The translations under genes were made by a program, and so were the position numbers. DNA of 64,000 nucleotides from positions 88,440-152,439 of the forward strand of contig JAWXBR010000009.1 of assembly GCA_034440235.1 (NCBI GenBank), in the 5' to 3' direction. Each line of letters starts with the position of its first letter. Positions within the stretch are counted from its first letter, which is position 1. This stretch comes from a bacterium. GTDB lineage: Bacteria > Bacteroidota > Ignavibacteria > Kapaibacteriales > Kapaibacteriaceae. Below, in pieces: positions 5,172-48,908 of the stretch. Below the pieces are notes generated by a model. The model was not told the origin of the DNA, ran no database searches, and saw only the letters and a list, made by a program, of their open reading frames with translations.

Positions 5172-5313
5172 CGGTCCTCCAGTGACACAACAGGAACCTT
5201 GGCGAACATACGTGTTTGGAGCAATCGAACAAAATACTGAAATGATAAAGCGACAATTCGTTTGACTTTCTTATGTTGCCGTGGTTCTTTATTCTTTCTT
5301 CGCGAGGCCAATT

Positions 5314-30622: not shown

Positions 30623-32965
30623 GTGCTGCGACCTATACCTGCTGGAGATCATATTCCGGCGTCGGACTTGCTTGAGGGGCTGAATGAGAAGCAGCGCGAG
30701 GCTGTGGCGACAACCGACGGACCGCTTTTGATTATTGCGGGGGCGGGGAGCGGGAAGACGCGCGTATTGACGTATCGCATTGCGTATTTGCTGCGTATGG
30801 GGGTGCATCCGAGTCACGTTTTGGCGCTGACGTTTACGAATAGGGCGGCGCAGGAGATGAAGGAACGCATCGGACATCTCGTTGGAGATGGAATTGCACG
30901 CGGTATTTGGGCGGGCACGTTTCACTCGCTGTTTGCTCGCATTCTGCGCAAAGAAGCAGAACGCATTGGATACACAAATGCATTTACGATTTACGATACC
31001 GATGATCAGCTATCGGCAATCAAGGCCGTGATGACGCAGCTTGGTGTGTCGCAACAGGTGTTGCCGCCAACCGGTGTGCGCAGTCGCATCTCGGGCTATA
31101 AGAACAACATGACGCCGTGGCAGGAAGCTGCGCGGAATGCGGATACACTTGTCGACAAACAGACAGCGCAGATTTATGAAGAGTATGAGAAGCGCCTGCG
31201 ACAGAGTAACGCCATGGACTTCGATGATTTGCTGCTGAACATGATACGGTTGCTTGAGCATCATCCAGATGCACTTGCTGAATATCAAGCGCGGTTTAAG
31301 TACATCATGGTCGATGAGTATCAGGATACCAATCGCGTGCAGTATCGAGCAGTGAATTTGCTCGCTGGTGCGCTGCGAAATCTTTGCGTGGTGGGCGATG
31401 ATGCACAGAGTATTTACAGATGGCGCGGCGCGGACATTCGCAACATCCTCGATTTTGAGCGCGATTACACCGACGCTAAGGTTGTGCGACTGGAGCAGAA
31501 CTATCGAAGCACAAAGATGATTCTTGCTGCTGCTGATAGCGTTATAAAGAATAACGTCAAGCAACTGAAGAAGACGTTGTGGACGGATAACGATGAGGGC
31601 GAAAAGATTACGCTGCTTGCATGCAGGGACGATAGAGAAGAAGCAGAGTTGGTTGCGCGAACGATTAAAGACCGCATGCAACTGCACGGCTACACGTTCA
31701 AGGATGTGGCTGTTCTCTACAGAACGAATGCTCAGTCTCAAGCACTTGAAGATGCGTTGCGCCGACTGAACATGCCGTACCACATTGTAAGCGGAGTTAG
31801 CTTTTATAAACGCAAGGAAGTCAAAGACACGCTTGCATATCTACGATTGCTTGTAAATCAGAACGACACGGAAAGTTTACTGCGCATTATTAACGAACCT
31901 GCTCGTGGTATCGGAGCAACATCGCTCGAGAGATTGCAGGAGCGCGCCGTGGCCGAAGGCCGCCCCCTAATCGAAGTTCTACAAAGTCCGTTGGCCATGA
32001 GCATCGTGCAGAAACGGACGCAAGTCGCGGTTGCGGATTTCGTTGATATTGTGAATCGGTATAGAGAGATGGTGGATGATTTGCCGCCCGCGACGTTAGC
32101 GCAACAGTACATCGAGGCGACGGGTTTGCCGCAGATGTACAAGCTGCAGGACACCGAGGATTCGCTAGATCGCTGGAATAACATCGAACGTGTGCTCTCG
32201 CACATCTATGAGCAGCAAGAGCTCGACGAGACACTTACGCTTGCAACGTATCTCGAGCAGATTGCGCTGCTGAGTGATGCCGATGATCCGCAGATAGGAA
32301 GCAATCGTGTTGGACTAATGACGATGCATGCGGCGAAGGGGCTTGAGTTTCCGCTTGTGGTAATTGCTGGACTCGAGCAGGGATTGTTTCCGCTTGCAAA
32401 AGCAGAAACCGATATCAACGAACAGGAGGAAGAACGTCGGTTGTTTTATGTGGGAATAACGCGCGCACGTAAAGAACTTGTGCTTGCGTACGCGGAACGC
32501 CGGTATCGATTTGGTGAGTTGGTGTTCGGACGTCCCTCGATGTTCCTTGCCGAAATCGATAAATCTGCCTTTGCAGAAATGCCCGATCGCAGTGGAAAGC
32601 AGATTGCTGGATCGCGTCCGATAACTGACAAGGTTGCAATTCGCGGCATCGACAGTAAACGTCCGAGCAAAGCCGCCGAAAAAGAAGCATTGTCACATGC
32701 GCGCTTTCAGCCACCTACGTGGAAGGTGGCGAAGCCAAGGGGCTCACACAATGAATACGCTCAGGAATCGGGCGACTCGTATTCGCAAGTCGAAGACGGT
32801 GGTCGCGTCTTGCCGGGTCAGCGTGTTAAGCACCCTATGTTCGGCGTAGGCACGGTGACTGGCGTCAGTGGTGTTGGAACTCAAGCCAAGGCCACAGTGC
32901 TATTTCAAAACGGGGAAAAGAAAAACCTCATGCTCGCATACGCGAAGCTCGAGTTGATTAGTTGA
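30623..32965 (+). CDS. uvrD: UvrD/PcrA-type ATP-dependent DNA helicase
   Basis: LNEKQREAV...PLLIIAGAGSGKTRVLTYRIAYLL (Walker A). Downstream superfamily-1 helicase motifs (DEYQDTN, VGDDAQSIYRWRGA, ..TMHAAKGLEF..., VGITRAR). Confidence 0.85.
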   Translation: MLRPIPAGDHIPASDLLEGLNEKQREAVATTDGPLLIIAGAGSGKTRVLTYRIAYLLRMGVHPSHVLALTFTNRAAQEMKERIGHLVGDGIARGIWAGTFHSLFARILRKEAERIGYTNAFTIYDTDDQLSAIKAVMTQLGVSQQVLPPTGVRSRISGYKNNMTPWQEAARNADTLVDKQTAQIYEEYEKRLRQSNAMDFDDLLLNMIRLLEHHPDALAEYQARFKYIMVDEYQDTNRVQYRAVNLLAGALRNLCVVGDDAQSIYRWRGADIRNILDFERDYTDAKVVRLEQNYRSTKMILAAADSVIKNNVKQLKKTLWTDNDEGEKITLLACRDDREEAELVARTIKDRMQLHGYTFKDVAVLYRTNAQSQALEDALRRLNMPYHIVSGVSFYKRKEVKDTLAYLRLLVNQNDTESLLRIINEPARGIGATSLERLQERAVAEGRPLIEVLQSPLAMSIVQKRTQVAVADFVDIVNRYREMVDDLPPATLAQQYIEATGLPQMYKLQDTEDSLDRWNNIERVLSHIYEQQELDETLTLATYLEQIALLSDADDPQIGSNRVGLMTMHAAKGLEFPLVVIAGLEQGLFPLAKAETDINEQEEERRLFYVGITRARKELVLAYAERRYRFGELVFGRPSMFLAEIDKSAFAEMPDRSGKQIAGSRPITDKVAIRGIDSKRPSKAAEKEALSHARFQPPTWKVAKPRGSHNEYAQESGDSYSQVEDGGRVLPGQRVKHPMFGVGTVTGVSGVGTQAKATVLFQNGEKKNLMLAYAKLELIS

Positions 32966-33263: not shown

Positions 33264-34388
33264 CTACGCGACGCGTGGGAGCGTGAACGTAATCGAGGTG
33301 CCGAGGCCGAGGGTGCTCGAGATGGAGAAGCTTCCACCGTGGAGTTCGACGAGGCGCTTGGCGATAACGAGGCCAAGGCCGATGCCCTGTTGTTCTTGTG
33401 ATTTGCGGCGGAACTGACGGTATGCGCCGACCTGCATGACTTCGTTTTCGTGCATACCAACGCCGTGGTCACGGATAGAGAACGTGATGTCCTTGCTGCT
33501 AGGTGTGGCGATGACGGAGACGGGCGTGCCGGGACGTGAAAAGTACAAAGCGTTGTCGACGAGCTCTGTTGCAATCTTGTCGAGGTGTTGCTCCATGATG
33601 CACACCGCTACGTCTTCTACGTCGAGGGCGATGGTAACGTCGGCCTGACGCTGATGGGCAAGCGCACGCTGGATGGCAGCATCGTAGATAACCATTGCCG
33701 GCTCTGCGGTGTGTGCCTGACGCATCCGTTCGACGTGCATGGGGCTTTCTGACAACGTTTCGATCTGAGCGTACATCAAGAAATTATCGGTTGTACGCAG
33801 CAGACGCCGTGCAGCAGATAGAATCTCTGCACTTACTTCGCGGATCTCTTCTGGTGGAGTATCACTGGCATGTCCGTGCAGGAACGACGCCTGACCTATG
33901 ATGTCCGTTAGCGGCGTGCGGTACTCATGCGGAAGCGCATAGAGCAGTGATGGCTGCTGCGTATTCGATTGCTGGATAAGGGGCGGCGTTTCGCCAAGGG
34001 TCGGGAGTCCCTGAATGGCAAGCAATGAATGGATGCCTGCGTCGGTTAATGGACGCGATATAACACCGTATGGAATGTCGGTTGTTGCCAGAGGAAGTTT
34101 GTCGCCCGCAAGGAGCACAAACGGCGTGTCGACATTCAGTCCGTGGATATACAGCTTTTCCCGAAGGTCCTTCACCGACAGAAATGCCTGGTCGAGTAGG
34201 ACGGTAGATGGACGATGGTGGCGTACCAACCCCTGCGCCGATGCTACATCAGTAGCGATGAGCACGGAGATGTCGTATCCGAAGAGTGTGCGCGCTGTTT
34301 CTGCACGCCTCAGAGGATCGGCATCAATAAGTAGGATGGTACGTGGACTTGAGGTCATAAATTGAGCGCTATCGCCATGTGGTCGCAT
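33264..34388 (-). CDS. Hybrid response-regulator/histidine kinase (N-terminal REC, HisKA, HATPase_c)
   Basis: REC-like ILLIDADP...D; H-box ALPHEYRTPLTDIIG; ATPase G-boxes IRDHGVGM and GIGLGLVIAKRLVELHGG. Confidence 0.75.
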   Translation of the reverse strand: MRPHGDSAQFMTSSPRTILLIDADPLRRAETARTLFGYDISVLIATDVASAQGLVRHHRPSTVLLDQAFLSVKDLREKLYIHGLNVDTPFVLLAGDKLPLATTDIPYGVISRPLTDAGIHSLLAIQGLPTLGETPPLIQQSNTQQPSLLYALPHEYRTPLTDIIGQASFLHGHASDTPPEEIREVSAEILSAARRLLRTTDNFLMYAQIETLSESPMHVERMRQAHTAEPAMVIYDAAIQRALAHQRQADVTIALDVEDVAVCIMEQHLDKIATELVDNALYFSRPGTPVSVIATPSSKDITFSIRDHGVGMHENEVMQVGAYRQFRRKSQEQQGIGLGLVIAKRLVELHGGSFSISSTLGLGTSITFTLPRVA

Positions 34389-36407
34389 AGGTCAAGCACC
34401 AACGCGTATGGCAATATAGCAATCGGAAACACATACAACAATCCGTATTTGTTACATCAGAAAAAATACCTACAACTGACTCGGCGGTCGGACTTTTGGC
34501 TACGCCAGACGGCGGCTAGGGCCTTGCTGGGATTGGCTCTTGTGGCGTTATCCACAACGACCTGCCTAACACAACATATTACGACATTGTTACATCAGAA
34601 TTTGCAGCCTTTTGGGACTGGAATCCAGTTTGGAGTGGACAAAATCGCCAACACGTTCACGTTTTTCGGCAATGCCGATGTTACCATAGACGGCGATTTT
34701 GGTCGACTTCGGTGGGTAAACACATATCGTGGAAGGGTTTCCAGAACCACGTCGTTGTCCGCAACCGACGACGAGGCGTCGTTTATCGATCTACAAATTC
34801 CACTTTGGGGAGCGCTGCCCGTTACTGCAGTTGTTCGGCAATCGTGGATGCTTGCGCGGGATGCGCGCACCCCGCTAAGCTCGGGTGAACACGTGAACGG
34901 AGCCGTCGGTTTGCGATACGAACCGAGTGACGGCAACTGGGTGGAGGGGTTGGGAGGTGCCGAACATACTTCTCAGCTGGGTGTGCGTGCAACTGGTGCG
35001 CTGGCTGGAATAACGGCAGGCGTTACGAGTCTGCTTGTTGATGAATGGCAGTTGACAGCGAGATCGTTGGCCGATTGGAATGCGATGGACGAGAGGCGAA
35101 CGAATACCGATGTGATGGTGTCGGCCGATGTGTTGCGCAACCTCGATGAAGGGTCGACATTGTCGTTGTCGGTTGGGTACTCCGGACAACGTCGCGACTT
35201 CCTTAGCACGATCGTGTCGGACAAGCCCGATGAATTGCTCGTTGAATCGCGCGGTGAGCGTCGTCTTACGGTTGCGACGAATCTGCTGTATTACGTGACG
35301 TCCGCTCTTAGCATTTCCGCCTCAGGCAATGTGAACGTAAATGGAATAGACCGTTCGTACCAGTCGTTTCTGCAGACTGTACCTATTACGGGCGTGAATA
35401 GAAACCTTTTTGAGTTTCTTTTGGACATGGCAGGTGAGGCGGTGTACACGACGTCTGGATACACGGTTTCGGGACGGGTTGCTTTATTTCGTAGGGACGA
35501 AGAAAACGGCGTGAAACCAGTGTTTGCTGTCGATGAAAGCGCCATTGCTAGTCTTCGGCAACAAGAAGTGCAACGTGACAATGCGACGCAGCGCACCAAC
35601 CTGCTAGGTCGCATAGAGCTCAGGCCTTCGGACGTCGACACGCTTCGAGGTGAATGCAGTGGCTGGCTTCTACGCTACGACACACCGAGCACATTGAATT
35701 ATGATGATCGTGACGAACTCGCCGTGATAGCTTCGATGTCCTATGCTCGCCGTCTATCGCCGACCGTTTCTGTAGGTGTTACGTTGTCTGGACAATCGAT
35801 GCACCTTGTCTTTCTTCGGGCACAACGGAGTGCGCAAAACAACATCAATCGCGTAATTCGCCTAACCCCAACGGTAAACATCACCGGAGCAGTTGTAACA
35901 ATGCAACCACAGTGCGAGGTGCTTGCCAACTACACGGTATACGATTTCGAAGAAACTGCTGGATCGACGCGCTCATATAGTTTCAGGCAAATGTCGTACA
36001 GAGATTCGATGCGTATTCAGCTAACGCCGGCATTGAAAATTGAAACGCAACTTTTGCTGCGATACTCCGAACGATCGTCTCTTTCATGGACCGATTTCGC
36101 AGAGGTCCCACAAGTCAGCAACACAGAGTACCTAGCCAAAATGCTTATTTTCTCGAGCAATTCAGGTTGGAGCATAGGGGCGGGCGCTCGGGCGTATCAG
36201 TTCAAACAAAACACGCTAGTGCTGAGTGTCGACCAAGGTCGATCGCTTGGTTCCCTTAGGTTCTGGGCACCCGAGACGGCCATTCGCTACACAACCACGG
36301 GTGGTTCTACGTTATCGGTGAGTGGTTGGTACGAATTCCAGGTCGTGAACGAAGGTACACGGCGTGAACTGCCGAATCTACTTTTGCTGGCACACATTCA
36401 ATTTTGA
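34362..36407 (+). CDS. Hypothetical outer-membrane beta-barrel-like protein (start uncertain)
   Basis: Hydrophobic leader LLGLALVALSTTTC, alternating beta-strand pattern, C-terminal Phe (..LLLLAHIQF). The annotated start overlaps the divergent HK, so the true start is probably later or non-ATG. Confidence 0.4.
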   Translation: MSAIAMWSHRSSTNAYGNIAIGNTYNNPYLLHQKKYLQLTRRSDFWLRQTAARALLGLALVALSTTTCLTQHITTLLHQNLQPFGTGIQFGVDKIANTFTFFGNADVTIDGDFGRLRWVNTYRGRVSRTTSLSATDDEASFIDLQIPLWGALPVTAVVRQSWMLARDARTPLSSGEHVNGAVGLRYEPSDGNWVEGLGGAEHTSQLGVRATGALAGITAGVTSLLVDEWQLTARSLADWNAMDERRTNTDVMVSADVLRNLDEGSTLSLSVGYSGQRRDFLSTIVSDKPDELLVESRGERRLTVATNLLYYVTSALSISASGNVNVNGIDRSYQSFLQTVPITGVNRNLFEFLLDMAGEAVYTTSGYTVSGRVALFRRDEENGVKPVFAVDESAIASLRQQEVQRDNATQRTNLLGRIELRPSDVDTLRGECSGWLLRYDTPSTLNYDDRDELAVIASMSYARRLSPTVSVGVTLSGQSMHLVFLRAQRSAQNNINRVIRLTPTVNITGAVVTMQPQCEVLANYTVYDFEETAGSTRSYSFRQMSYRDSMRIQLTPALKIETQLLLRYSERSSLSWTDFAEVPQVSNTEYLAKMLIFSSNSGWSIGAGARAYQFKQNTLVLSVDQGRSLGSLRFWAPETAIRYTTTGGSTLSVSGWYEFQVVNEGTRRELPNLLLLAHIQF

Positions 36408-36472: not shown

Positions 36473-36892
36473 ATGACTCCTGAAGTCCGTACATACTCGA
36501 TACAGATCTCAAGTGAACGCGGAAGTATTGCTGCTATAGAACCGTTTGTGATAAGCATCCCAGAGGCACACCGACTTACCGCTGAGAGATTTCATGACTT
36601 GCTTCTTGCACTTACAGAAGCGGTAAACAATGCTATAATACACGGTAATGAATGCGACTCTTCAAAGAGAGTGCACGTCGACATACAAGTTTTCGAAACT
36701 GAATTTCTCGTGCTTATTCGCGATTTCGGCAAGGGCTTCGATCCCGAAGCGTTGCCCGACCCGAGGCATCCCGACAATCTTATGCGTGAGGGCGGCCGTG
36801 GAGTTTTTCTCATTCGGCACTTGGCCGATGTCGTCGAAATCTACCGGTCAGACCCGGGTACAACCGTTCTTCTCAAATACTTCATTACGTAA
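36473..36892 (+). CDS. RsbW-like anti-sigma factor / serine kinase (HATPase_c only)
   Basis: 139 aa with N-box ALTEAVNNAIIHGNE and G-box GGRGVFLIRHLADVVEI. Its stop overlaps the downstream ATG (TAATG). Confidence 0.6.
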   Translation: MTPEVRTYSIQISSERGSIAAIEPFVISIPEAHRLTAERFHDLLLALTEAVNNAIIHGNECDSSKRVHVDIQVFETEFLVLIRDFGKGFDPEALPDPRHPDNLMREGGRGVFLIRHLADVVEIYRSDPGTTVLLKYFIT

Positions 36893-39118: not shown

Positions 39119-39948
39119 TAATTTCCGCGGATGAAAGTCATTATCCGATCGATGTATGCTTGTGTGCCGAGACCTGTGGGCACGTCTTCGTGACCAGCCC
39201 CTTGCACCACAACAAATGCTTTCGGATTCTTCGCTGCATCATACAAGGCTTGTCCGCTGGCCTTGATGTCGATGAATGCGTCGGCATCTCCGTGCAATAT
39301 GAGCACTGGACATGAAATTTCCGAAATTCGGGCGAGGTTATCAATTTCGTCGCGAGTGAGGTAGCTCTGCGGAATATCGAGCACTGTGGCACTTTGTAAT
39401 AACACCTTGGTGGATGCAAACGCCGACTCAAGGATAAGCACGTGTGGTTTTCCAATTATTGAAGCCTGCATGAGCGCCGGAACGCCACCTAAAGAAAAGC
39501 CGTACGGCACAATAAGCGTGGAGTCGACATCCGGACGCGAGGCCACATAATTCCATGCGGCACGAGCGTCAGCCTGGAGTCCGGCTAGCGAACTCACGCC
39601 CTCGCTACGTCCGAACCCTCGGTAATCGTACACAAACACATCGAAGCCAGCGCGGTAGAGGTACTCTACTCTGGTCCAGTAGTAGGTGATGTGGTCTTTA
39701 TTGCCATGATTATAAATTATTGTATGATGTGGCTCGATGCGAAGTGAGTCGGGCTGACGAATATAGAAGCCGTACAAACGATTGCCTTCTGAATCGAACA
39801 CAACTTCTTCGCGATTTGCTGACGGTATTACAGAATCGGATACAACGTATGCGTCGAGCCTCTGTTCGTTGTACATAAACGAATCGAGAGAGCATGAACA
39901 AAGCATGCAACTCGAAAGAATAACTATTGCAAACAGAAAGCGAGTCAT
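39118..39948 (-). CDS. Alpha/beta-hydrolase fold protein (lipoprotein-type signal)
   Basis: An internal Met gives MTRFLFAIVILSSCMLCSCS, a lipobox-like sequence. Nucleophile elbow GFSLGG. His/Asp near the C-terminus. Confidence 0.7.
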   Translation of the reverse strand: MTRFLFAIVILSSCMLCSCSLDSFMYNEQRLDAYVVSDSVIPSANREEVVFDSEGNRLYGFYIRQPDSLRIEPHHTIIYNHGNKDHITYYWTRVEYLYRAGFDVFVYDYRGFGRSEGVSSLAGLQADARAAWNYVASRPDVDSTLIVPYGFSLGGVPALMQASIIGKPHVLILESAFASTKVLLQSATVLDIPQSYLTRDEIDNLARISEISCPVLILHGDADAFIDIKASGQALYDAAKNPKAFVVVQGAGHEDVPTGLGTQAYIDRIMTFIRGN

Positions 39949-40616
39949 AGTTTTAGTCCCACACCAACAAACATTCCAATCGAGCCTTGTCCGCCAATCG
40001 ACGATTCTCCACGAAAGAGTCCCGACGTCGTTACAACATTTGCAGCCTGCCAGATGAATTCTGCCTGCACGAATATCCTTTCTGAGGCGGGTACTTGAGT
40101 GCCAATCATCGGACTCACAAATACACGCGCGTCGGAAAGCTGCACCGTAGCATGTGTACCTGCATACACGAGCCACGCTTTTTGAATCTCCCAGCTAGCA
40201 ATAATCGATGCATTTGGATAGATGCGAGAGTTGGCAATCGAAGAGAAGTCGGTAAACAAAATCGTGCGAAGTCCGATCGTCATTTCGGGTAACGCACCAT
40301 CCTGCCTTACTATTCTACCCGAAGCGCCTACGTCGATGCCAGCGGTTCCAAATGCAAGCAAAAGCGCATGAAGGTTGCCATGCAACGTCACTTCTTCGGT
40401 GACGCCATGCATTATACCTACTGTTACGTAGGGTATGATTTTTACGGGTGACGACGAAGGAACAACGGGTCCGCCCAACGAAGCAGTAAGTTGCGTCTCG
40501 TTCGGCCGCAGCACGCGAATGGGCTGACCCGCGCTGCACCCTCCGATAAGCCCTCCGATAAGCAATGCGCCTGAGCAAATGCACAGGCATGTAGACAACA
40601 AATGGAAAACCCTCAT
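39945..40616 (-). CDS. Hypothetical secreted/outer-membrane protein
   Basis: Signal peptide MRVFHLLSTCLCICSGALLIGG. Beta-rich, ends ...VGLKL. Confidence 0.4.
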   Translation of the reverse strand: MRVFHLLSTCLCICSGALLIGGLIGGCSAGQPIRVLRPNETQLTASLGGPVVPSSSPVKIIPYVTVGIMHGVTEEVTLHGNLHALLLAFGTAGIDVGASGRIVRQDGALPEMTIGLRTILFTDFSSIANSRIYPNASIIASWEIQKAWLVYAGTHATVQLSDARVFVSPMIGTQVPASERIFVQAEFIWQAANVVTTSGLFRGESSIGGQGSIGMFVGVGLKL

Positions 40617-43600
40617 ATTCGAAGATATGACCACACGCGCATTTAGTCGTCACGATGCAGTTCTGAACGAAGTCACGTCGTCGGCTTCGTTTCAGGACAT
40701 GCTCTCGAATGTTGCATCACTCGATTGCACCCTCATCGTGCCATCGACTGCACACAAACGCGCGGCGCTTGTGACACTTACGAGGCAGACAACGGGACGC
40801 AAGCCGCCTGAGATTTACACGCTGGCAACGTATGCACAGTACATCGTCCGCGAACGTAGTACAGAAAATCTTCGACTACTGAACACGGCAGACGCATCAC
40901 TCATCTTGAGGTATGCAGCACGTAGTGCTGGACTGCGCCTTGGGAGTATCGACTTTTCAATTCACCGGCTTCTGCGATGGAAGAGTGAAGGCATTACACG
41001 AGACGAGCTGCTAGAAAAGTCCGCAGATGAATTTGCACCTCGTCACGTACGTGTACTCGATGGCTTCGTGCGTATCTGGAGCGCATACGAATTGAGTAAG
41101 GGGCCGAAAGGGGCTGATCGTGTAGATGTATTAGTAAAGGCTGCTCGACTTGTTCTCGAGGCACCGAAGGTTGCAGATCGTCGGTTCGTCGTATGGTGTC
41201 CGCACACCTTTACTCGTGCCGAGGCTGCCCTTGTGCGCGCGATAGGTGTACACGGCAGCGTAGCAATCGTATGGGCCCCGTCGTCCGATGCGCAGTTGGT
41301 AAACGAACGAACAAGCGACATGATTGGTTGGGGGTGGGAGAACGTAGGTGGTGAAGACACTGGTCATTCATCGGACGATGCAGTCACGCGGCACAAGAGC
41401 ATTCGCGTTTTTCGCGAGAGTACGCGCGTCGAAGAAGTCCGTCGGATTCTACTCGCCATCAAGCAAGCAGTATCGAGCGGCGGCATAAACGTGCGCGACA
41501 TCTGCATCATCACACCTGGAAGTAGCGAGTACCGACGTCAGCTTCAGGAACGCGCTACACGTGCTGGCATACCGCTGGCAGTAGACCCGCAACGGACACT
41601 GCACACAAGTGGCGTTGCTCTTGCCTTGCGTGCTGCATGTGATGTCGTGGGTGGTGCGTGGAAACGTGCAGACCTCGAGCGTCTATTGCGTAGCGGATTT
41701 GTCATGGCGGACTCTACAAATGCTGGGGCTCTGCTTCACGCAGCCACCGCACATCGCGTTCAGGGCGGTCAGGGCTTCGACGGATGGAAACAAAAGCTTT
41801 CCAGTAGACGAGAAGTACTTCGCATAGTACATGAGCGCGACGAAGAGATCGATCGCGGCATCAGACGCACGCTAGCCGTGCTCGACGAGGCTTTGCGGAC
41901 GCTTGCATGGTTGCGACTAATTCTAGGCGATGATGACAGGTCTATCAAGGGTGCTGCTTATACTCAAATGCTTACCGCGTTTTTAGAGCGGTTAGGCATA
42001 GCACGCACCGCAGTGCATCTCGAAAAAATCGCTCTCTCAGAAAATCTACCTTGTGTCGAACGCGAAGCACTCGTCGCAATCGAAGCTTTAAGTGAACGCT
42101 ATGCAGTTCTCACCAGCGACGTTGATATGCCGTTGATGACAATTGCCGAGCATACGCGAGAGTGGTGGGAGTTGGTGCGCGCGACTAAGGTGCGGACTCC
42201 CGACGTGCTGCTCGACGGAATACCAATCCTTACACCTGAGGAAGCGCGAGGTCGGATGTGGAAACTTGTGCTTGCGCCGGGCTTTGTTGAAGGCGAGTTT
42301 CCGTTGCATGAGCACGATCCACTCGAAGCAGAAGTATTGCCCGAATCAGCACTACGCAAACAACGAGCGGCGTTCGAAGACATCATACATGCTACGTCCA
42401 TCGACGGCCATCTTGTTGTTACATATCCTAAAGAAGTTGACGATTCGGATGTGTTGCCATCGAGCTTTCTGCGCGGACTCGATATTGAACCACATGACGA
42501 AGCCACATTTTTTCTCGACGCGTACGAGCGCACTGCACATACAGGTACGGGGCTACGAGACGTCAAGGGGCGGCAGCGCGCCGCGCTACCCGAGGCCAAC
42601 GAAGCTGTTGTTCAGAGCACAGCCGAGGCCGACGAAAGCGCGGTTCTGAGCTCTGGCAGCGCCGCTCTCGTGCAGTACGTTGCGGACATTGTGAACAGAC
42701 CCTTAAGCGCATCGAGACTCGACGTTGTTGCGGCGTGTCCGTACAAATTCTACGCCAGCACCATTCTCCGCCTCGATGTTGAGCATACGACGGATGACAC
42801 GCTGTCCGGACTCGAACGTGGTTCGATGATGCATGAGATTGTACGCCAGTTCTACGAACGTGTTCGTGGCAGATCATATCGCACAATTACTACGACAGAA
42901 GAGCTGCTCGATGCACGCGTAGAGCTCGAAGACATTCGACGTCACGAATACATGGGAATTCTTCTGGATGTCTACATGAGCGTAGCGCCGTTGTACGATA
43001 CCGACCATACGTATGCAGAGACCGAGAGGCGATCGTTGCTCGGGGGACCCGACGGACCTTCGATGCTTGGAACTCCGCAGCGTCCCGGACTTCTCTACCG
43101 TTGGCTTGCGCACGAGATTGCGCAACAATCGAAATCTGCGATGAGGCCTGCATTGTTTGAGTATGAATTAGACGTTGTTGTAGGAGGCGAAGCCATTCGC
43201 GGACGTGTGGACAGAATAGACGTAGCCCCTTACCAATTTGATGACGGACACAATGGTGTGCAGTTCGCTGTGGTCGATTACAAAACCACGAAGGCCTCGG
43301 CGCCAAGTGCAAAGTCGGTAATGCTTGGTGAAGCGACGCAAATGCCTCTGTATCTTACAGCTGTTCACGCCGAATTTTTAAAGCATGGTATCGAAGCTAT
43401 ACCTGCTCAGGCAATCTATCGTACGTTTGGCAGATCGTTAAAGACTGTCGAAGATCCTAAAGATCTGGCGGTCCTTGCGAATCCATCTGAAGAGCTTATG
43501 CAGAATTTGTTTAACACCATTAACGAACACGTAAAAGACATGCGTGCATCATCGTATCCCGTCGCACCGCGACCAAAGGCATGCGACAGGTGCGGCTTTC

Positions 43601-43647
43601 AGGAAGTATGTCGCGTGGCATCGTGGGGTACAGTACAACGTACATGA
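40579..43647 (+). CDS. AddB-like PD-(D/E)XK nuclease family protein with C-terminal Fe-S cysteine cluster (start uncertain, possibly 40627)
   Basis: About 1000 aa. C-terminal RecB-type nuclease motif GRVDRIDV...FAVVDYKT. Four Cys (AACPYKF ... PKACDRCGFQEVC) as in AddB/Cas4-type nucleases. Its stop overlaps the next start (ATGA). Confidence 0.7.
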   Translation: MHRHVDNKWKTLIFEDMTTRAFSRHDAVLNEVTSSASFQDMLSNVASLDCTLIVPSTAHKRAALVTLTRQTTGRKPPEIYTLATYAQYIVRERSTENLRLLNTADASLILRYAARSAGLRLGSIDFSIHRLLRWKSEGITRDELLEKSADEFAPRHVRVLDGFVRIWSAYELSKGPKGADRVDVLVKAARLVLEAPKVADRRFVVWCPHTFTRAEAALVRAIGVHGSVAIVWAPSSDAQLVNERTSDMIGWGWENVGGEDTGHSSDDAVTRHKSIRVFRESTRVEEVRRILLAIKQAVSSGGINVRDICIITPGSSEYRRQLQERATRAGIPLAVDPQRTLHTSGVALALRAACDVVGGAWKRADLERLLRSGFVMADSTNAGALLHAATAHRVQGGQGFDGWKQKLSSRREVLRIVHERDEEIDRGIRRTLAVLDEALRTLAWLRLILGDDDRSIKGAAYTQMLTAFLERLGIARTAVHLEKIALSENLPCVEREALVAIEALSERYAVLTSDVDMPLMTIAEHTREWWELVRATKVRTPDVLLDGIPILTPEEARGRMWKLVLAPGFVEGEFPLHEHDPLEAEVLPESALRKQRAAFEDIIHATSIDGHLVVTYPKEVDDSDVLPSSFLRGLDIEPHDEATFFLDAYERTAHTGTGLRDVKGRQRAALPEANEAVVQSTAEADESAVLSSGSAALVQYVADIVNRPLSASRLDVVAACPYKFYASTILRLDVEHTTDDTLSGLERGSMMHEIVRQFYERVRGRSYRTITTTEELLDARVELEDIRRHEYMGILLDVYMSVAPLYDTDHTYAETERRSLLGGPDGPSMLGTPQRPGLLYRWLAHEIAQQSKSAMRPALFEYELDVVVGGEAIRGRVDRIDVAPYQFDDGHNGVQFAVVDYKTTKASAPSAKSVMLGEATQMPLYLTAVHAEFLKHGIEAIPAQAIYRTFGRSLKTVEDPKDLAVLANPSEELMQNLFNTINEHVKDMRASSYPVAPRPKACDRCGFQEVCRVASWGTVQRT

Positions 43648-46055
43648 AATCATTAAAATCGGCTGATCTTCGATGGAGCTGTCCACTTTCGCTCCTGCCT
43701 TTTAAGTCTACGCGCGAAATCGCTCCTCTCAACCACATTGTTGGTCAGGAACGAGCAGTCGATGCAATCCTTCTTGGCGCGCAAATACACTCGCAGGGAT
43801 ACAACATTTATGCGTCTGGGATAACGGGCACCGGACGCCTTACCACCATTCGGCATATCCTCGACGATTTGAAACGCGAGAAGCCCGATCTCTGGGATTT
43901 TGCTTACGTGCATAATTTTAGAAACCCCGACATGCCAGTGCTGCTGCGCTTTCATGCAGGTGAGGGACGTTTGTTTACGCGTATGATGGAAGACGCGATT
44001 AACGTCGTAAAACGTCGCATACCGCAACTCTTCGAAGAAGAAGCGTTTCTATCGCAGCGTAAAAAAATCATGCAGAGCTTTCAGCAGCAGGAACGCGGAC
44101 TGCTTAAAGAGTTCGATGCAAAAATTCGTCCGTCCGGCTTCGTTGTAGGTCAGGTGCAAGAAGATGACGGCTCCGTTCGCAGCGAAATTTTCGCACTTGT
44201 TGCAGAGAAGCCCTATCAACTCGAAGAGCTCGAAGAGTTAGTACACAAGAACGAATTGAAAGAAGCAGACGCAGAGCGAATTCGTGAAGCGTACTCTGCG
44301 TATCGCGATGAGCTGAACGACATTGGCCGCCGCTCGTTGCGATTGATGACAGAGTTTCGCAAGAAGCTCGCAGAGAATGATCAAGGGGCTGTTGGCGTTC
44401 TGCTGAAAACAATCTTCGACGACATCATGCAGAGTTTCTCGCGCGACCGCGTGAGCGAGTTCCTCACAGGGGTCACCACGCATGTTCTCGAACATCTCGA
44501 CGACTATGTACGGCTATTCCAACCACGTCAGGGATCGGGTGCAGAAGAAGCAGAGGAGCAACTCAAGCAGGCCTTCAAGCTCTACGCTGTAAATCTCATT
44601 CTCGACAACTACGATGCAAAGCTTGCACCTGTGCTTGTCGAGACGGCCCCGACATACGCAACGCTGTTTGGTACAATAGAGCGTCGCGTTGATGCACGTG
44701 GTGTTGCGGTTAGCGACTTCTCGCATATCCGCGCAGGCTCGATACTCCGTGCCGACGGAGGTTATGTGGTGCTGAACGCTGTAGACATTCTAAGCGATCA
44801 GCAGATGTGGACGGCGCTGAAGCGCGTGATGTTATACGGTCGTCTTGAAATTCAAACACTCGATACGCAGTTTCAATCGAGTGCAGTAAAACCCGAGTGG
44901 ATAAAGGTCAACGTAAAAATTATTCTGCTCGGCGATCCGCAGATCTATCTCGCGTTGTGGGGCGCCGACGAAGACTTCCACAAGATGTTCAAGGTACATG
45001 CAGAGTTTGCGGACGAAACAGTTCGCACGCCCGAAATGATACGTCACTATTGTGGGTTCTTTGCAAAACTTGCTGTAGAAGAACATCTGTTACACTGCGA
45101 CAGAACTGGTGTGGCCTCGCTTATCGAGTGGGCAGTCGAATACACAGAGTCGCAGGACAAAATCACATTGCAATTCAGCTACGTTGCCGACTTAATGCGT
45201 GAAGCGTCGTTCGTTGCACGCAAGGCAAATGCAACGCTTATCACGCGGACACATGTTTTACAGGCAATCGACCATAGACATCAGCGCAGCAACCGTGCCG
45301 ACGAAACAATTCGCGAACAGATTAAGAAGGGCACACTTCTTATCGACGTCGAAGGCTCGCGCGTCGGACAGATTAATGGTCTGTCGGTTTATAGTACGGG
45401 CATTGTCGATTTCGGCAAACCCTCGCGCATTACAGCTACGGTTAGTGCAGGTAATGCTGGCATCATAAACATCGAGCGCGAGGTTTCGTTAAGTGGAGCA
45501 ATTCACTCGAAGGGCGTGCTCATTCTGACTGGCCTCTTGCGTTCGATCTTTTCGCGTGCACAACCAATTTCATTTAGTGCAAGCATTGCATTCGAGCAAT
45601 CGTACGGCGGCGTCGATGGCGATAGCGCCTCGGCAGCTGAGATTGTTGCGTTGTTATCGGCGATTGCGAACTGTCCGATTCGCCAAGACCTCGCAATCAC
45701 TGGCAGCATTAATCAGAAGGGCGACATCCAACCCGTTGGTGGCATCAACGAAAAAATTCTTGGCTTCTACGAAGTGTGTCGCGATAGACAACTCACGGGC
45801 ACACAGGGCGTTGTAATTCCGTTTCAAAACGCTAAAGATTTAATGCAAAACGCAGAGGTTGTCGAAGCTGTGCGCAAAAAACAGTTCTGCATCTACCCAA
45901 TCAAACGTCTCGAGGATGCAATCTATATGATGATCGGAATGGAAGCAGGACAGGTACGCAAGGACAACACGTTCCCGCCAAACACGCTGTTCGCAAAAGT
46001 GCAGCACAACCTCGATGTCCTACACGAAGCATCGAAGATGCACCGCGGACTATAA
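43644..46055 (+). CDS. Lon-like (LonC-type) protease: non-canonical AAA-like domain plus S16 Ser-Lys protease domain
   Basis: C-terminal S16 signature GDSASAAEIVALLSAI... and downstream Lys (ITGSINQKGDIQPVGGINEKI). N-terminal P-loop-like GITGTGRLTT lacks the canonical Walker-A Lys. Confidence 0.7.
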   Translation: MKSLKSADLRWSCPLSLLPFKSTREIAPLNHIVGQERAVDAILLGAQIHSQGYNIYASGITGTGRLTTIRHILDDLKREKPDLWDFAYVHNFRNPDMPVLLRFHAGEGRLFTRMMEDAINVVKRRIPQLFEEEAFLSQRKKIMQSFQQQERGLLKEFDAKIRPSGFVVGQVQEDDGSVRSEIFALVAEKPYQLEELEELVHKNELKEADAERIREAYSAYRDELNDIGRRSLRLMTEFRKKLAENDQGAVGVLLKTIFDDIMQSFSRDRVSEFLTGVTTHVLEHLDDYVRLFQPRQGSGAEEAEEQLKQAFKLYAVNLILDNYDAKLAPVLVETAPTYATLFGTIERRVDARGVAVSDFSHIRAGSILRADGGYVVLNAVDILSDQQMWTALKRVMLYGRLEIQTLDTQFQSSAVKPEWIKVNVKIILLGDPQIYLALWGADEDFHKMFKVHAEFADETVRTPEMIRHYCGFFAKLAVEEHLLHCDRTGVASLIEWAVEYTESQDKITLQFSYVADLMREASFVARKANATLITRTHVLQAIDHRHQRSNRADETIREQIKKGTLLIDVEGSRVGQINGLSVYSTGIVDFGKPSRITATVSAGNAGIINIEREVSLSGAIHSKGVLILTGLLRSIFSRAQPISFSASIAFEQSYGGVDGDSASAAEIVALLSAIANCPIRQDLAITGSINQKGDIQPVGGINEKILGFYEVCRDRQLTGTQGVVIPFQNAKDLMQNAEVVEAVRKKQFCIYPIKRLEDAIYMMIGMEAGQVRKDNTFPPNTLFAKVQHNLDVLHEASKMHRGL

Positions 46056-46103
46056 GGGAAAGGGTCTGCGAGAGTTTGATAGCGCCGTTTATAGTCAACA
46101 AGT

Positions 46104-47669
46104 TTAGTGACGGAAGTGGCGCATTCCCGTCATCATCATCGTCAGGCCCCGTTCGTTTGCAGCTGCGATGACCTCTTCATCACGCACACTGCCGCCCGGT
46201 TGTATCACAGCAGTAGCGCCTGCGTCTGCGGCTTGTAGTAGTCCGTCGGCAAATGGGAAGAAGGCGTCGGACGCAACGGCGCATCCTTGCAGACTTAGTC
46301 CGGCGTCGTTGGCCTTGCTTACGGCAATACGTGCCGAGTCGACGCGCGACATTTGTCCGGCACCAACGCCCAACGTCCTGTCGGCTAACGCATACACAAT
46401 GGCATTGCTCTTCACATGTTTTGCAATCTTCCAGGCGAACATCATTGCAAGATGTTCTTCTGTAGTGGGCTGACGTTCGGTGACAACACGAAGAGTTCCT
46501 TCATCGAGTAGCATTGCGTCGGGCGATTGCACAAGGTAGCCCCCTGCCACCGTGCGAATGTCGATTGAACTTGCCGATCGTGCATCGCGTAACTGCACCG
46601 TCATGAGTCGGCGGTCTTTTTTCTTGGTAAGAATTGCAAGTGCTTCTTCTGTGAACGAAGGAGCGATAAGCACTTCTGTAAACAATGCATGTACTTCTGA
46701 GGCGAAGGCGGCATCGACCGGGCGGTTGACTGCGATGATACCGCCGAACGGACTCACTGTGTCAGTCGCAAATGCCTTTTGATATGCATCGACAAGTGTG
46801 TCGCCACTTCCCACACCACACGGGTTGTTGTGTTTTACAATCGTAACGGTCGGGTCGTCGAACTCGAGAACAACGCGCGTTGCTGCATCGATATCAAGGA
46901 TGTTGTTAAACGACAGTTCCTTGCCATGCAATTGCTGAAAGAGGTCGAGAAAGTTGCCATAGAGAGCAGCCTGCTGATGCGGGTTTTCGCCGTACCGCAA
47001 TGCTTGTGACTTACGCATAGGAATGGCGAATTCATCGGGGAGTACTACGTGCTGTTCCGCTGCAAACCAGGACGAAACCATGCCGTCGTATCGCGCAGTG
47101 TGTGAGAATGCCTCGCGTGCGAGTTGCTGCCTGAAGTCGATTTCTTCGAAGTCCTGAAGTATGTCGGACATCGGGTCCGCGCCGATACTCTTTTGCGTTA
47201 GGCGTTGCAACAGGTCGGCATATCGGGCCGGGTTTACAACAATGAATGTGTGACGGTAATTCTTAGCGGCAGCGCGCACCATTGCCGGACCGCCGATGTC
47301 GATGTTCTCGATGAGCGTTTCGTGCGAAACCCCTGCTGTTCGCAACGTCTTCTCGAACGGGTACAGGTTTACGATGGCGATATCGATAGAATCGATGTCG
47401 TGTTCGCGCATCTGCTTGATATGCGTTTCGTCATCGAGTACGCCTAACAACCCGCCGTGAATCTTCGGATGGAGTGTTTTCACACGTCCATCCATGATCT
47501 CTGGGAACCCCGTCACCTCGCTCACCTTCCGCACGGGGAGTCCGGCCTCCGCCAGCGTCTTCGCCGTGCCTCCGGTCGATATAAGGCTTATGCCTAGTGC
47601 GTGCAGTTGTTGGGCAAGTTCAACAATGCCTGTTTTATCCGAAACCGAGAGGAGTGCAGTGCGAATCAT
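46104..47669 (-). CDS. purH: Bifunctional AICAR transformylase / IMP cyclohydrolase
   Basis: [23 protein letters not shown]-terminus (MGS-like) and C-terminus ...[11 protein letters not shown]. Start placed at the internal ATG. Confidence 0.9.
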
Positions 47670-47696: not shown

Positions 47697-47755
47697 TCGA
47701 GAAATCCACAGGTTGTGTGAACTGCTCAAGAAATCCACAGGTTGTGTGAATTGCT
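47697..47755. repeat. Two tandem ~29-bp direct repeats (TCRAGAAATCCACAGGTTGTGTGAAYTGCT) between the Fic stop and purH start
   Basis: Copies at about 47697-47726 and 47727-47755 are near-identical. They sit in the 84-bp gap upstream of purH. Confidence 0.65.
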
Positions 47756-48908
47756 ACGACTCGTGTATGAAGCCTGCCTTACGCAGAGATTCGATGAGAG
47801 GACGCAACAACGGACCGTGCACAAGTTCAATCACGTACTTTCTTGAATTCGGGCTTGGGAAGGGGCTAATAAGTTTCCGGTCCTTGAATTTTGTGATGAC
47901 GTGTGAGAGCGAAGCAGGCGACTTTTCTGGGTAGAATTTTGTGAACACAGACACATCACCTAGCTGAGCATCGAGAATCGAAGTAAGAACCCTTGCCTCG
48001 TCTGTACTAACGATGTTCCTTTCCTGGGCAAGAGCAATCGTGGGCAAAAGCAGCGCGGAACGAAGATGATGTGTATCGAGCAGCGCATCTACTTTCACGA
48101 TCTCCGATCGAAGTCCGCTCAGAACAAACTCGCACCATGCAAGGAGGTGCTCGATCTCACCACTGTCGGCGTTGGATAAAGACTGCATGTATGCCGAGCG
48201 ATCTTTACAGAATACCGCCGTAGGATTTAGAATACGACCCGATCCTATGCGAAAGCCTGCACGAAGTAACATCGCATACGTTAGCAATCGAACCGTTCGA
48301 CCGTTCCCGTTGCGAAACGGATGTATGTAAACAAATCTATGATGTGCCATCGCTATACGTAACAGGTCCGTGCGCGAGTTCTGTCTGTCGTTGATGAATG
48401 CAACCAGCTCTGCCATCAAAGAATGTATTTCGGAAGACGGAGGTGGTTTATGGGTCGAACCTGCAATAGAGATAGGACGACTGCGGTAGCTGCCCGGGGA
48501 GTCGTCGCCCTCTCCGCCCTCATGTGGACTTCGCAGATTTTTTACTGTTAGTCTATGCAGTTCTTTAACTAAGGCATCATCGATTGGTCGTGACGGATAC
48601 ACATCGAATTCGCCTTCAAGAAAGGTCATTGCGTCATCGAGGTTCGCAATCTCTCGTAGCGATTCTGTGGTGTTCATCTCCTTATCGATACTGGCTTCCA
48701 CCAGCTCATCAATCGTAGTGTGGTTGCCTTCTATGCGTGCCGATTGAAAACTTTCGAGAAGGTGGAAAACTGCCTTTATTGAAAAGAATATTGCTGGATG
48801 CGTACTGCCATGCAGCGAACGCGCCTTTAACTTCTCGAGTTCGATGATGTCCTCCACAATCTGCGCATCGAACTGTGGTGAAGGTATGGTAAGTGCATAA
48901 TTAGCCAT
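47754..48908 (-). CDS. Fic/DOC family protein (putative AMPylase)
   Basis: Fic motif HPFRNGNGRTVR (HxFx[D/E]GNGRxxR with Asn at the acidic position). About 380 aa. Confidence 0.8.
   Translation of the reverse strand: MANYALTIPSPQFDAQIVEDIIELEKLKARSLHGSTHPAIFFSIKAVFHLLESFQSARIEGNHTTIDELVEASIDKEMNTTESLREIANLDDAMTFLEGEFDVYPSRPIDDALVKELHRLTVKNLRSPHEGGEGDDSPGSYRSRPISIAGSTHKPPPSSEIHSLMAELVAFINDRQNSRTDLLRIAMAHHRFVYIHPFRNGNGRTVRLLTYAMLLRAGFRIGSGRILNPTAVFCKDRSAYMQSLSNADSGEIEHLLAWCEFVLSGLRSEIVKVDALLDTHHLRSALLLPTIALAQERNIVSTDEARVLTSILDAQLGDVSVFTKFYPEKSPASLSHVITKFKDRKLISPFPSPNSRKYVIELVHGPLLRPLIESLRKAGFIHES

Follow-up and report, generated by a model that had tools for sequence, protein, structure and literature searches.

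An addB-like nuclease gene overlaps a lonC-type protease gene in a syntenic housekeeping block of Kapabacteria

We found that a gene for a divergent AddB-type nuclease and a gene for a LonC-type Lon-like protease lie side by side, in the same orientation and with a 4-nt overlap, in a window of 64,000 nt (the whole stretch of DNA that was analyzed; contig JAWXBR010000009.1, assembly GCA_034440235.1, positions 88,440-152,439 of the forward strand). The reading that best fits our results, and one that we consider likely, is that these genes make up a lineage-specific two-gene operon of uncultured Kapabacteria for two housekeeping proteins of known families, with addB detached from addA. Coordinates given below are those of the window, and all of the features described are on its forward (+) strand.

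AddB is the nuclease subunit of AddAB, the enzyme that processes the ends of double-strand breaks, and it carries an Fe-S cluster in B. subtilis. The addB-like gene (40579..43647) is annotated here from the ORF list and translation, which give a maximum ORF length of 1022 aa. Its true start is probably the ATG at 40627 (M17), for a predicted product of 1006 aa. This start agrees with the NCBI record for the protein (P0001), and the M17 column is near-invariant among 28 homologues. A RecB-family PD-(D/E)XK nuclease domain (PDDEXK_1, PF12705, E 7.4e-34) covers aa 709-1012 (42703..43614). Its RecB-type motifs can be read directly as RVDRID (876-881), VVDYK (898-902) and QMPLY (921-925), and residues D878, D881, D900, Y901, K902, Q921 and Y925 are invariant in an alignment of 28 sequences. 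With the profile of the 28 homologues, these motifs align with the nuclease motifs of B. subtilis AddB, and the catalytic Asp in DYK corresponds to AddB D961. Four cysteines, putative ligands of a 4-Cys cluster of the Fe-S type, are also invariant in the 28 homologues. Cys720, the first putative ligand, is in a CPYKF motif (42736..42738), and the remaining three form the directly readable pattern C1002-x2-C1005-x5-C1011 (43582..43611). All four align with the cysteines at the equivalent positions of B. subtilis AddB (Cys801, Cys1121, Cys1124 and Cys1130). A word-index homology search with the 28-sequence nuclease profile returned few family members, and relatives of the nuclease were gathered instead from loci located via the Lon gene.

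The resemblance to AddB extends over the whole protein. When the PDB was searched with the 28-homologue profile, the sole match was B. subtilis AddB (3u44_B, E 4.5e-17). Comparison with AddA-paired AddBs using hhalign gave a probability of 100% and an E value of 1e-62 over 879 columns (columns 55-1024). For an AlphaFold model of the nuclease (pLDDT 78.9), the five best Foldseek matches were all to AddB chain B (E 6e-32, full-length alignment), with AdnA and RecC next. The inactive, SF1-helicase-like N-terminal domains were homologous to AddB and RecC over their full length. Like AddB (RexB; PDB 3U44/4CEI chain B), the protein is ~1000 aa long and consists of a motor-dead, SF1-helicase-like body and, C-terminal to it, a nuclease domain of the RecB family. 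The first-pass annotation had described an AddB-like nuclease of about this length with a RecB-type motif and a 4-Cys cluster, and this description was borne out by the PF12705 match, the motifs, the invariant cysteines and the AddB fold.

There are also differences. The nuclease is only ~14% identical to B. subtilis AddB and, unlike that protein, has no N-terminal Walker A (LIVPST in place of GxxGxGKT); this motif is missing across one whole AddB subtype, including members that are paired with AddA. Scores against the NCBIfam AddB models were below cut-off (52.2 bits against 903.7 for TIGR02773, addB_Gpos; 40.4 bits against 486.5 for TIGR02786, addB_alphas); the protein represents a divergent AddB-type lineage that falls outside the coverage of both clade-specific models. 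By sequence and by predicted structure, the first ORF is a full-length AddB homologue, or orthologue, of a divergent lineage.

The second gene (43644..46055) encodes a Lon-like protease of 803 aa with the Pfam domains LonC_helical, AAA_32, LonB_AAA-LID and Lon_C. Its start at 43644 is backed by independent gene calls and by the alignment of homologues. The length of 824 aa given in the first-pass annotation is that of the longest ORF, from 43581, and is incompatible with the start in the ATGA overlap that was reported along with it; the overlap itself stands. The P-loop reads GITGTGRLTT (aa 59-68; 43818..43847; read directly and by alignment), a degenerate Walker A with Arg65 at the site of the lysine. 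GTGR is present in 23 of 26 aligned homologues, and the other three (P0122, P0127 and P0128) have GTGK. The Walker B-like segment, GGYVVLNAVD (aa 372-381; 44757..44786), is likewise degenerate, with Asn378-Ala379 at the Asp-Glu site. [quoted passage not shown] Between these motifs is a LonC-specific helical insertion in the AAA-like module (~aa 85-315; 43896..44588), matched by PF20437 at aa 85-117 (E 1.3e-10) and seen as long helices at aa 107-312 in the model of the protease. The S16 Lon protease domain (PF05362) covers approximately aa 568-767 (45345..45944). Its catalytic residues, Ser661 in DGDSAS (45624-45626) and Lys704 in NEK (45753-45755), are both invariant and align with the active-site region of MtaLonC. 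The absence of the Walker A lysine and the intactness of the S16 domain, both pointed out at first pass, are thus confirmed.

We found that the protease belongs with LonC and not with the related LonB or BrxL. It matches MtaLonC by sequence (4fwd, E 9.5e-75), and its model (pLDDT 83.8) matches the MtaLonC fold over the full length, with TM scores of 0.76/0.84 over 810 columns against the LonC cryo-EM structure 8k8v_A. The order of domains is that of MtaLonC (PDB 4FWD, 8K8V; MEROPS S16 subfamily C): an AAA-like alpha/beta domain at the N terminus, into which a long helical segment is inserted, then a LID and the S16 protease domain. Both proteins have an intact Ser-Lys dyad, lack the catalytic Glu of Walker B and are soluble, without a membrane segment; here, the maximum 19-residue Kyte-Doolittle hydropathy of 1.45 (usual threshold 1.6) indicates that none is expected. 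Identity to MtaLonC is ~26%, and the helical insertion is longer here (803 aa in total, compared to 719 aa). MtaLonC keeps the P-loop lysine (GPPSLGKHE) where the present protein has Arg (GTGR), and its Walker B Asp is replaced by Asn, making the site here more degenerate still. Archaeal LonB (Thermococcus onnurineus, PDB 3K1J) has the AAA_32 and LID domains, and the protease here shares its LonB-like proteolytic-site consensus. In contrast to the present protein, LonB is anchored in the membrane and its Walker motifs are functional. We rejected a LonB identity on the TIGR00764 score (148.9 bits against a cut-off of 516.6), the degenerate Walker motifs and the lack of a hydrophobic segment. 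BrxL of type I BREX, which is associated with DNA-targeting functions, shares a C-terminal Lon protease-like domain but differs in its N-terminal architecture, and there are no BREX genes near the locus here. BrxL was also rejected (TIGR02653, 17.4 bits against 628), its PADLOC match being confined to the protease domain. [quoted passage not shown] An AAA-like module that has degenerated and is inactive as an ATPase is the defining trait of the LonC subfamily (PMC3391209), and so the degenerate module is not a peculiarity of the present locus. ATP-independent proteolysis and chaperone activity have been described biochemically for LonC (PMC3391209, PMC13069640). From its motifs and by analogy with MtaLonC (PMC3391209, PMC13069640), the protease here probably has no ATPase activity and carries out ATP-independent proteolysis or chaperoning.

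The two genes are joined by an ATGA overlap (43644..43647) in which the TGA stop codon of the nuclease gene shares bases with the ATG start codon of the protease gene. Co-orientation and overlap predict that the genes are co-transcribed and translationally coupled. A scan of positions 39900-46400 for promoters and terminators gave sites no more numerous than in shuffled controls. The 4-nt overlap is also present in 24 of 34 loci of the clade and in the deep lineage L045.

The addB-like gene is not beside addA, as it is in canonical loci, and lonC is next to it instead. The nearest UvrD-family gene (30623..32965, inside the conserved synteny block) encodes a helicase of 780 aa with UvrD-helicase, UvrD_C and PcrA_UvrD_tudor domains. 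The first-pass annotation had noted that no AddA is adjacent, which is correct, and had called this helicase, 7.6 kb upstream, UvrD/AddA-type. It is of the UvrD family, but we ruled it out as AddA, since it is a PcrA/UvrD protein with a Tudor domain and has no PD-(D/E)XK domain. PcrA was the only match in tblastn searches for AddA, which was not found in the 64-kb window of the 160-kb contig or in ~40 pair-bearing loci with flanks of up to 10 kb, a small fraction of each genome. The question of whether homologues of the nuclease pair with AddA elsewhere, raised at first pass, has a clear answer for the outgroup AddB homologues: 5 of 5 are in canonical addB-addA operons, with an overlapping AddA gene directly downstream. 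Location of addB apart from addA is atypical.

Besides ~38 loci of related Kapabacteria/Ignavibacteria, two deeper lineages (L044 and L045) have the pair, and the 4-nt overlap is present in most cases. Every locus of the clade whose sequence extends upstream contains it, and the arrangement is therefore not a chance juxtaposition in one genome. The pairing proposed at first pass thus survives on both points on which it might have failed, conservation in other genomes and degeneracy of the AAA-like module. However, an entire housekeeping block of ~25 kb, PcrA...ribE-abhydrolase-addB-lonC-purH...rpsA, is equally syntenic in the clade, and conservation of the pair there is consequently not specific evidence. 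We therefore rejected the argument that the two genes must be functionally linked because 34 genome loci have the pair, the block as a whole having proved conserved in the synteny control. In L044 and L045 ribE remains beside addB, that is, to the same depth as the pair. The neighbors of the pair are housekeeping genes (ribE, purH, folC, rpsA and PcrA). Within the block the nuclease is the fastest-evolving gene, with identities of 26-32% compared to 62-72% for Lon; a fast evolutionary rate is typical of AddB (PMC1193525) and accounts for this difference. The overlap has been kept across a deep divergence (Lon 49% identical, AddB ~24%) over which the gene on the downstream side was exchanged (rpe in L045, purH here), and some selection for co-expression is possible.

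Outside these lineages the pair was not seen. AddB was absent near LonC in the other Kapabacteria lineages (0 of 4; loci L037-L040 and L131) and in metagenomic LonC loci with Lon identities of 39-46% (0 of 77). Overall, 4 of the 7 Kapabacteria sub-lineages sampled lack the pair. A neighbor-joining tree of Lon, without support values, was used for rough orientation only. Members of the LonC family are widespread and occur as single housekeeping genes. Elsewhere, lonC has an AI-2E transporter gene upstream in 25 loci and is overlapped by a pyruvate kinase gene in 11. In the pair-less locus L040, recA follows lonC.

AddB and LonC might instead form a dedicated functional module, an explanation that we regard as unlikely. 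As a chaperone or protease that works without ATP, LonC might, for instance, help AddB (or AddAB) to assemble, restrain it or clear it away once a break has been processed; alternatively, proteolysis by LonC could be triggered when the nuclease engages DNA ends. The coupling overlap, kept in the clade and in L045 despite the different downstream neighbor, would fit such a module, as would the retention of all catalytic residues in both proteins; the position of recA in L040 hints, weakly, at a connection with DNA metabolism. However, the pairing is limited to part of one candidate phylum, being missing from 77 of 77 distant LonC loci and from more than half of the sampled Kapabacteria sub-lineages. 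Adjacency of ribE is equally deep, so that the persistence of the pair is explained by background synteny. LonC elsewhere overlaps unrelated genes, AddB relatives elsewhere are always with AddA, and literature searches on an AddB-Lon or LonC-nuclease link found no relevant description. A proteolytic module triggered by DNA damage or foreign DNA, as the first-pass annotation had suggested, gained no support from the block synteny, ribE, the distribution or the AddA-paired relatives. We found nothing to show functional cooperation of AddB and LonC, and the notion that the pair works together is unsupported. The strongest version, in which AddB has been rewired, is no longer coupled to AddA and is translated together with a LonC that is dead as an ATPase and controls the assembly, turnover or activation of AddB at DNA ends, seems to us quite unlikely. 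No physiological substrate is known for LonC. If the rewiring were true, a LonC protease would, with AddB, have been assigned a physiological client or partner for the first time, and a conserved, co-translated partner would be a useful lead, although the distribution data make it a weak one.

We think it very unlikely that AddB has lost AddA altogether and acts as a stand-alone nuclease, or with a new partner such as the syntenic PcrA/UvrD helicase, its linkage to lonC being incidental. The searches for addA described above, in which PcrA alone was found, would fit such a loss, as would the rapid evolution of the nuclease and its failure to come near the equivalog cut-offs of the NCBIfam AddB models. 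Yet the loci searched cover a small part of each genome, and a fast rate is normal for AddB (PMC1193525). Moreover, the homology of the nuclease to AddBs paired with AddA covers its full length and takes in the helicase-like body, the part that contacts AddA and DNA in AddAB, and its many invariant N-terminal residues indicate that constraint has been retained. Most improbable of all is a role in anti-phage defense, either related to BREX through a BrxL-like Lon or as a new nuclease-protease abortive-infection system. PADLOC gave weak matches to BrxL (E 1.3e-5, protease domain) and Cas4 (E ~1e-3, nuclease domain), but the NCBIfam BrxL score (17 bits against 628) is far below cut-off, the neighbors are housekeeping genes with no BREX (brxA/B/C, pglX, pglZ) or other defense genes nearby, and a stable, vertically inherited syntenic block is unlike a mobile defense island. 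LonC, too, is a widespread single housekeeping gene. We dropped the defense reading; the PADLOC and NCBIfam matches to Cas4, GajB and BrxL are all weak and at the level of domains.

We therefore favor a lineage-specific operon of two housekeeping genes. The first encodes an AddB orthologue of the subtype without an N-terminal Walker A, in which an inactive body resembling SF1 helicases precedes a RecB-type nuclease at the C terminus. The second encodes a LonC-type protease, which by analogy with the Meiothermus protein should assemble into ring oligomers and act on unfolded proteins, by degrading or chaperoning them, without ATP hydrolysis. In an ancestor within the Kapabacteria, addB would have split from addA and landed directly upstream of lonC, beside ribE. 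The addB-lonC arrangement, usually with its 4-nt overlap, would then have been inherited vertically and lost in several sub-lineages. Each protein presumably retains its separate role, AddB in recombinational repair with an AddA encoded elsewhere and LonC in ATP-independent proteolysis or chaperoning, and the coupling would amount to co-expression only. For annotation of these metagenome-assembled genomes, our results indicate that the 'PD-(D/E)XK nuclease family protein' is a divergent AddB and that the 'AAA family ATPase' is a LonC-type, probably ATP-independent, protease. On this reading, addB would be stably separable from addA.

The nuclease and protease genes of the pair overlap at an ATGA, as the first-pass annotation had proposed. 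The nuclease ORF (40579-43647, + strand; 1022 aa as the longest ORF) ends in CAA CGT ACA TGA, and at 43644-43647 the overlap can be read directly: the protease gene (43644-46055, + strand) starts with the ATG at 43644, and the nuclease TGA occupies 43645-43647. The protease length given in that annotation, 824 aa, needs correction. It is that of the longest ORF, from an in-frame ATG further upstream at 43581, a start incompatible with the overlap. The ATG at 43644 gives 803 aa, the length also called independently in three other assemblies, and the homologue alignment starts at the same methionine. For the nuclease, Met17 (40627) is the most likely start, giving a predicted 1006 aa. This start agrees with GenBank protein MDZ4744696.1, and the M17 column is near-invariant in the family alignment.

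By sequence and predicted fold, the nuclease gene is orthologous to addB. Pfam assigned aa 709-1012 to a PD-(D/E)XK nuclease domain (E 7e-34); in NCBIfam, two AddB equivalogs matched below threshold, with no other relevant model. Across 28 aligned homologues, on average ~27% identical to the query, the catalytic motifs were invariant (D878 and D881 in RVDRID, D900-Y901-K902 in VVDYK, Q921 and Y925 in QMPLY), as were C720, C1002, C1005 and C1011. The only PDB match of this 28-homologue profile was B. subtilis AddB (3u44_B, E 4.5e-17), with an alignment spanning residues 262 to 999 and the four cysteines aligned on AddB Cys801, 1121, 1124 and 1130. Profile-profile comparison with 15 AddB-type proteins gave a probability of 100% (E 1e-62) over 879 columns, nearly full length; for each of the five among these 15 that were looked up, AddA is encoded adjacent. 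The best Foldseek matches of an AlphaFold2 model (mean pLDDT 78.9) were five AddB chain-B entries (E 6e-32 to 5e-30, ~1180 aligned columns), followed by AdnA and RecC. The earlier description of an AddB-like nuclease with a RecB-type motif and a four-cysteine cluster agrees with all of these results.

At the position of Walker A in some AddBs, the nuclease N-terminus reads LIVPST. GxxGxGKT is kept in two homologous loci (L126 and L127), and 'VVPT' is also present in AddA-paired AddBs such as that of locus L041, so the missing P-loop marks an AddB subtype and not local degeneration. Both N-terminal types, Walker A (GPGGTGKT or APPGAGKT; L126:8001-11195, L127:529-3834) and 'VVPT' (L041:3856-6738, window 40579-43647), were found beside AddA, and every Lon-linked Kapabacteria AddB examined was of the 'VVPT' type. 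Identity in the conserved gene block was 26-32% for AddB versus 62-72% for Lon. Fast evolution is normal for AddA and AddB, and the low AddB identity is this usual rate (PMC1193525). Selection on AddB is evident in the alignment, from the invariant catalytic residues and cysteines and from the many N-terminal positions that are conserved. The only interrupted copy seen was in locus L028 (9792-10001), where the final ~20 codons lie in another frame, through a frameshift or an assembly error.

The second gene is predicted to encode a LonC-type protease. Its Pfam domains are LonC_helical, AAA_32 (LonB-like AAA), LonB_AAA-LID and Lon_C. Classification among LonC, BrxL and LonB favored LonC; as LonB and as BrxL, the protein fell below the curated NCBIfam cut-offs. 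The closest solved relative is Meiothermus taiwanensis LonC (MtaLonC; 4fwd, E 9.5e-75), and an AlphaFold2 model (pLDDT 83.8) aligned end to end with the cryo-EM structure of LonC, 8k8v_A (TM 0.76/0.84). The P-loop indeed reads GITGTGRLTT, with Arg where Walker A has its lysine; 23 of 26 aligned homologues have this Arg, and three distant ones retain GTGK. In the Walker B-like strand, GGYVVLNAVD, an invariant Asn378-Ala takes the place of Asp-Glu. The S16 dyad is intact, as first described: Ser661 (DGDSAS) and Lys704 (GGINEK) are invariant. No hydrophobic segment was found in the protease (peak 19-residue Kyte-Doolittle hydropathy 1.45). LonC is a described subfamily, and MtaLonC, an ATP-independent protease and chaperone, has no ATPase activity and retains only Walker A-like and Glu-less Walker B-like motifs (PMC3391209, PMC13069640). 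A degenerate Walker A therefore characterizes the LonC family, the degeneration being somewhat more advanced in the window protein.

The window is chromosomal, with housekeeping gene content. By the names of its homologues, the organism falls within the Kapabacteria/Ignavibacteria MAGs. The helicase that had been noted as a UvrD/AddA-type enzyme apart from the nuclease (30623-32965, 780 aa) is of the UvrD family, but it is a PcrA/UvrD protein with a Tudor domain and no nuclease domain, and therefore not AddA. No AddA was found across the 64-kb window. After the helicase come a histidine kinase, a 681-aa ORF, an RsbW-like kinase, an M28 peptidase, ribE (-), an alpha/beta hydrolase (-), addB and lonC, followed by purH (-), Fic (-), a PAS-UbiA protein, folC (-) and rpsA (-). 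The Fic/DOC-family gene (47754-48908, -; 384 aa), between purH and the PAS-UbiA gene, occurs in just two of the syntenic loci, the window and its nearest relative (L001); it seems to have been inserted recently into the conserved block. The 681-aa ORF (34362-36407, +; TTG start, no Pfam family) is kept at 44-51% identity in most clade loci reaching that far upstream, always followed by the RsbW-like HATPase_c_2 kinase (36473-36892, +); the two are possibly a partner-switching or signalling pair. At the window's start, a 1710-aa ORF (39-5171, -) matched no Pfam family convincingly, an apolipoprotein-like coiled region scoring below threshold; multiple RCC1 repeats mark the 997-aa protein beside it (5281-8274, +).

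We found that the pair is conserved in related genomes. A genome-collection scan with the Lon protein gave 35 close loci (61-90% Lon identity), and every one that includes upstream sequence has an AddB homologue immediately upstream of lonC. In 24 of 34 loci, counting the window, stop and start overlap by exactly 4 nt; in the rest the spacing runs from 44 nt of overlap to a gap of 88 nt. Two more metagenomic loci (L046 and L047) also carry the pair. However, the same loci share the whole block (PcrA - orf681 - RsbW-like - M28 - ribE - hydrolase - addB - lonC - purH - PAS-UbiA - folC - rpsA), so that conservation of the pair inside the clade is no more than general synteny. Two deeper lineages keep the pair: L044 (Lon 57% identical), tightly abutted with an in-frame ATG one base after the stop, and L045 (Lon 49% identical), with an ATGA overlap and with rpe, not purH, downstream. 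The L045 AddB (1158 aa) has weak ADDB_N plus UvrD_C and PDDEXK_1 matches. ribE, an unrelated gene, is the upstream neighbour in both, an adjacency that has lasted just as long as the pair. In four further Kapabacteria lineages (L037/L038, L039, L040, L131), lonC occurs without addB; in L040 (477-4150, P0125), recA lies 30 nt after lonC on the same strand. A rough neighbour-joining tree of Lon and the shared ribE context suggest a single origin of addB-lonC within Kapabacteria, then several losses.

Phylogenetic profiling upheld conservation in the clade and the two deeper lineages; the pair was absent from the more distant lonC loci scanned. A metagenome scan with a Lon profile returned 80 loci, 77 of them at 39-46% identity, and none of the 77 had an AddB-family HMM match in the flanking sequence covered, which reached at most 7 kb. 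Clustering of lonC neighbours, followed by a Pfam search of a single example per cluster, revealed other recurrent partners among L049-L125 (e.g., L082:1622-3034, L054:7230-8669): an AI-2E-family transporter ~90 nt upstream on the same strand (25 loci), and a same-strand pyruvate kinase starting 4 nt before the lonC stop (11 loci). Unrelated genes overlap lonC elsewhere, and so tight overlap with lonC is not special to addB. The nuclease homologues elsewhere do pair with AddA: in all five of the closest outside AddB relatives that could be looked up (P0136, P0139, P0132, P0134, P0004), an overlapping AddA gene (UvrD helicase plus PD-(D/E)XK) follows AddB.

We consider it probable that addB and lonC form an operon specific to this lineage, whose two housekeeping products act independently of each other. 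AddB would resect the ends of double-strand breaks together with an AddA encoded elsewhere in the genome; LonC, needing no ATP, would hold unfolded proteins or break them down; and translational coupling would provide co-expression only. The comparative evidence gives no support to the nuclease-protease module first proposed, and a true AddB-LonC functional unit seems unlikely. An AddB that works independently of AddA is less likely still; both ideas would gain weight if addA were specifically missing from pair-bearing genomes. That the pair is a defence system is very improbable, given the stable housekeeping context of the locus and the negative outcome of the BrxL/BREX test.

AddB and LonC are known families, and the pair adds a new, divergent member to each. 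What is unusual is that addB appears to be detached from addA and co-translated with lonC, an arrangement for which we found no description in the searchable literature, and that the P-loop of the window LonC lacks even the lysine that MtaLonC retains. Neither feature requires a new kind of system. To our knowledge, LonC has no known physiological role, and for this reason its recurrent gene partners may be worth attention.
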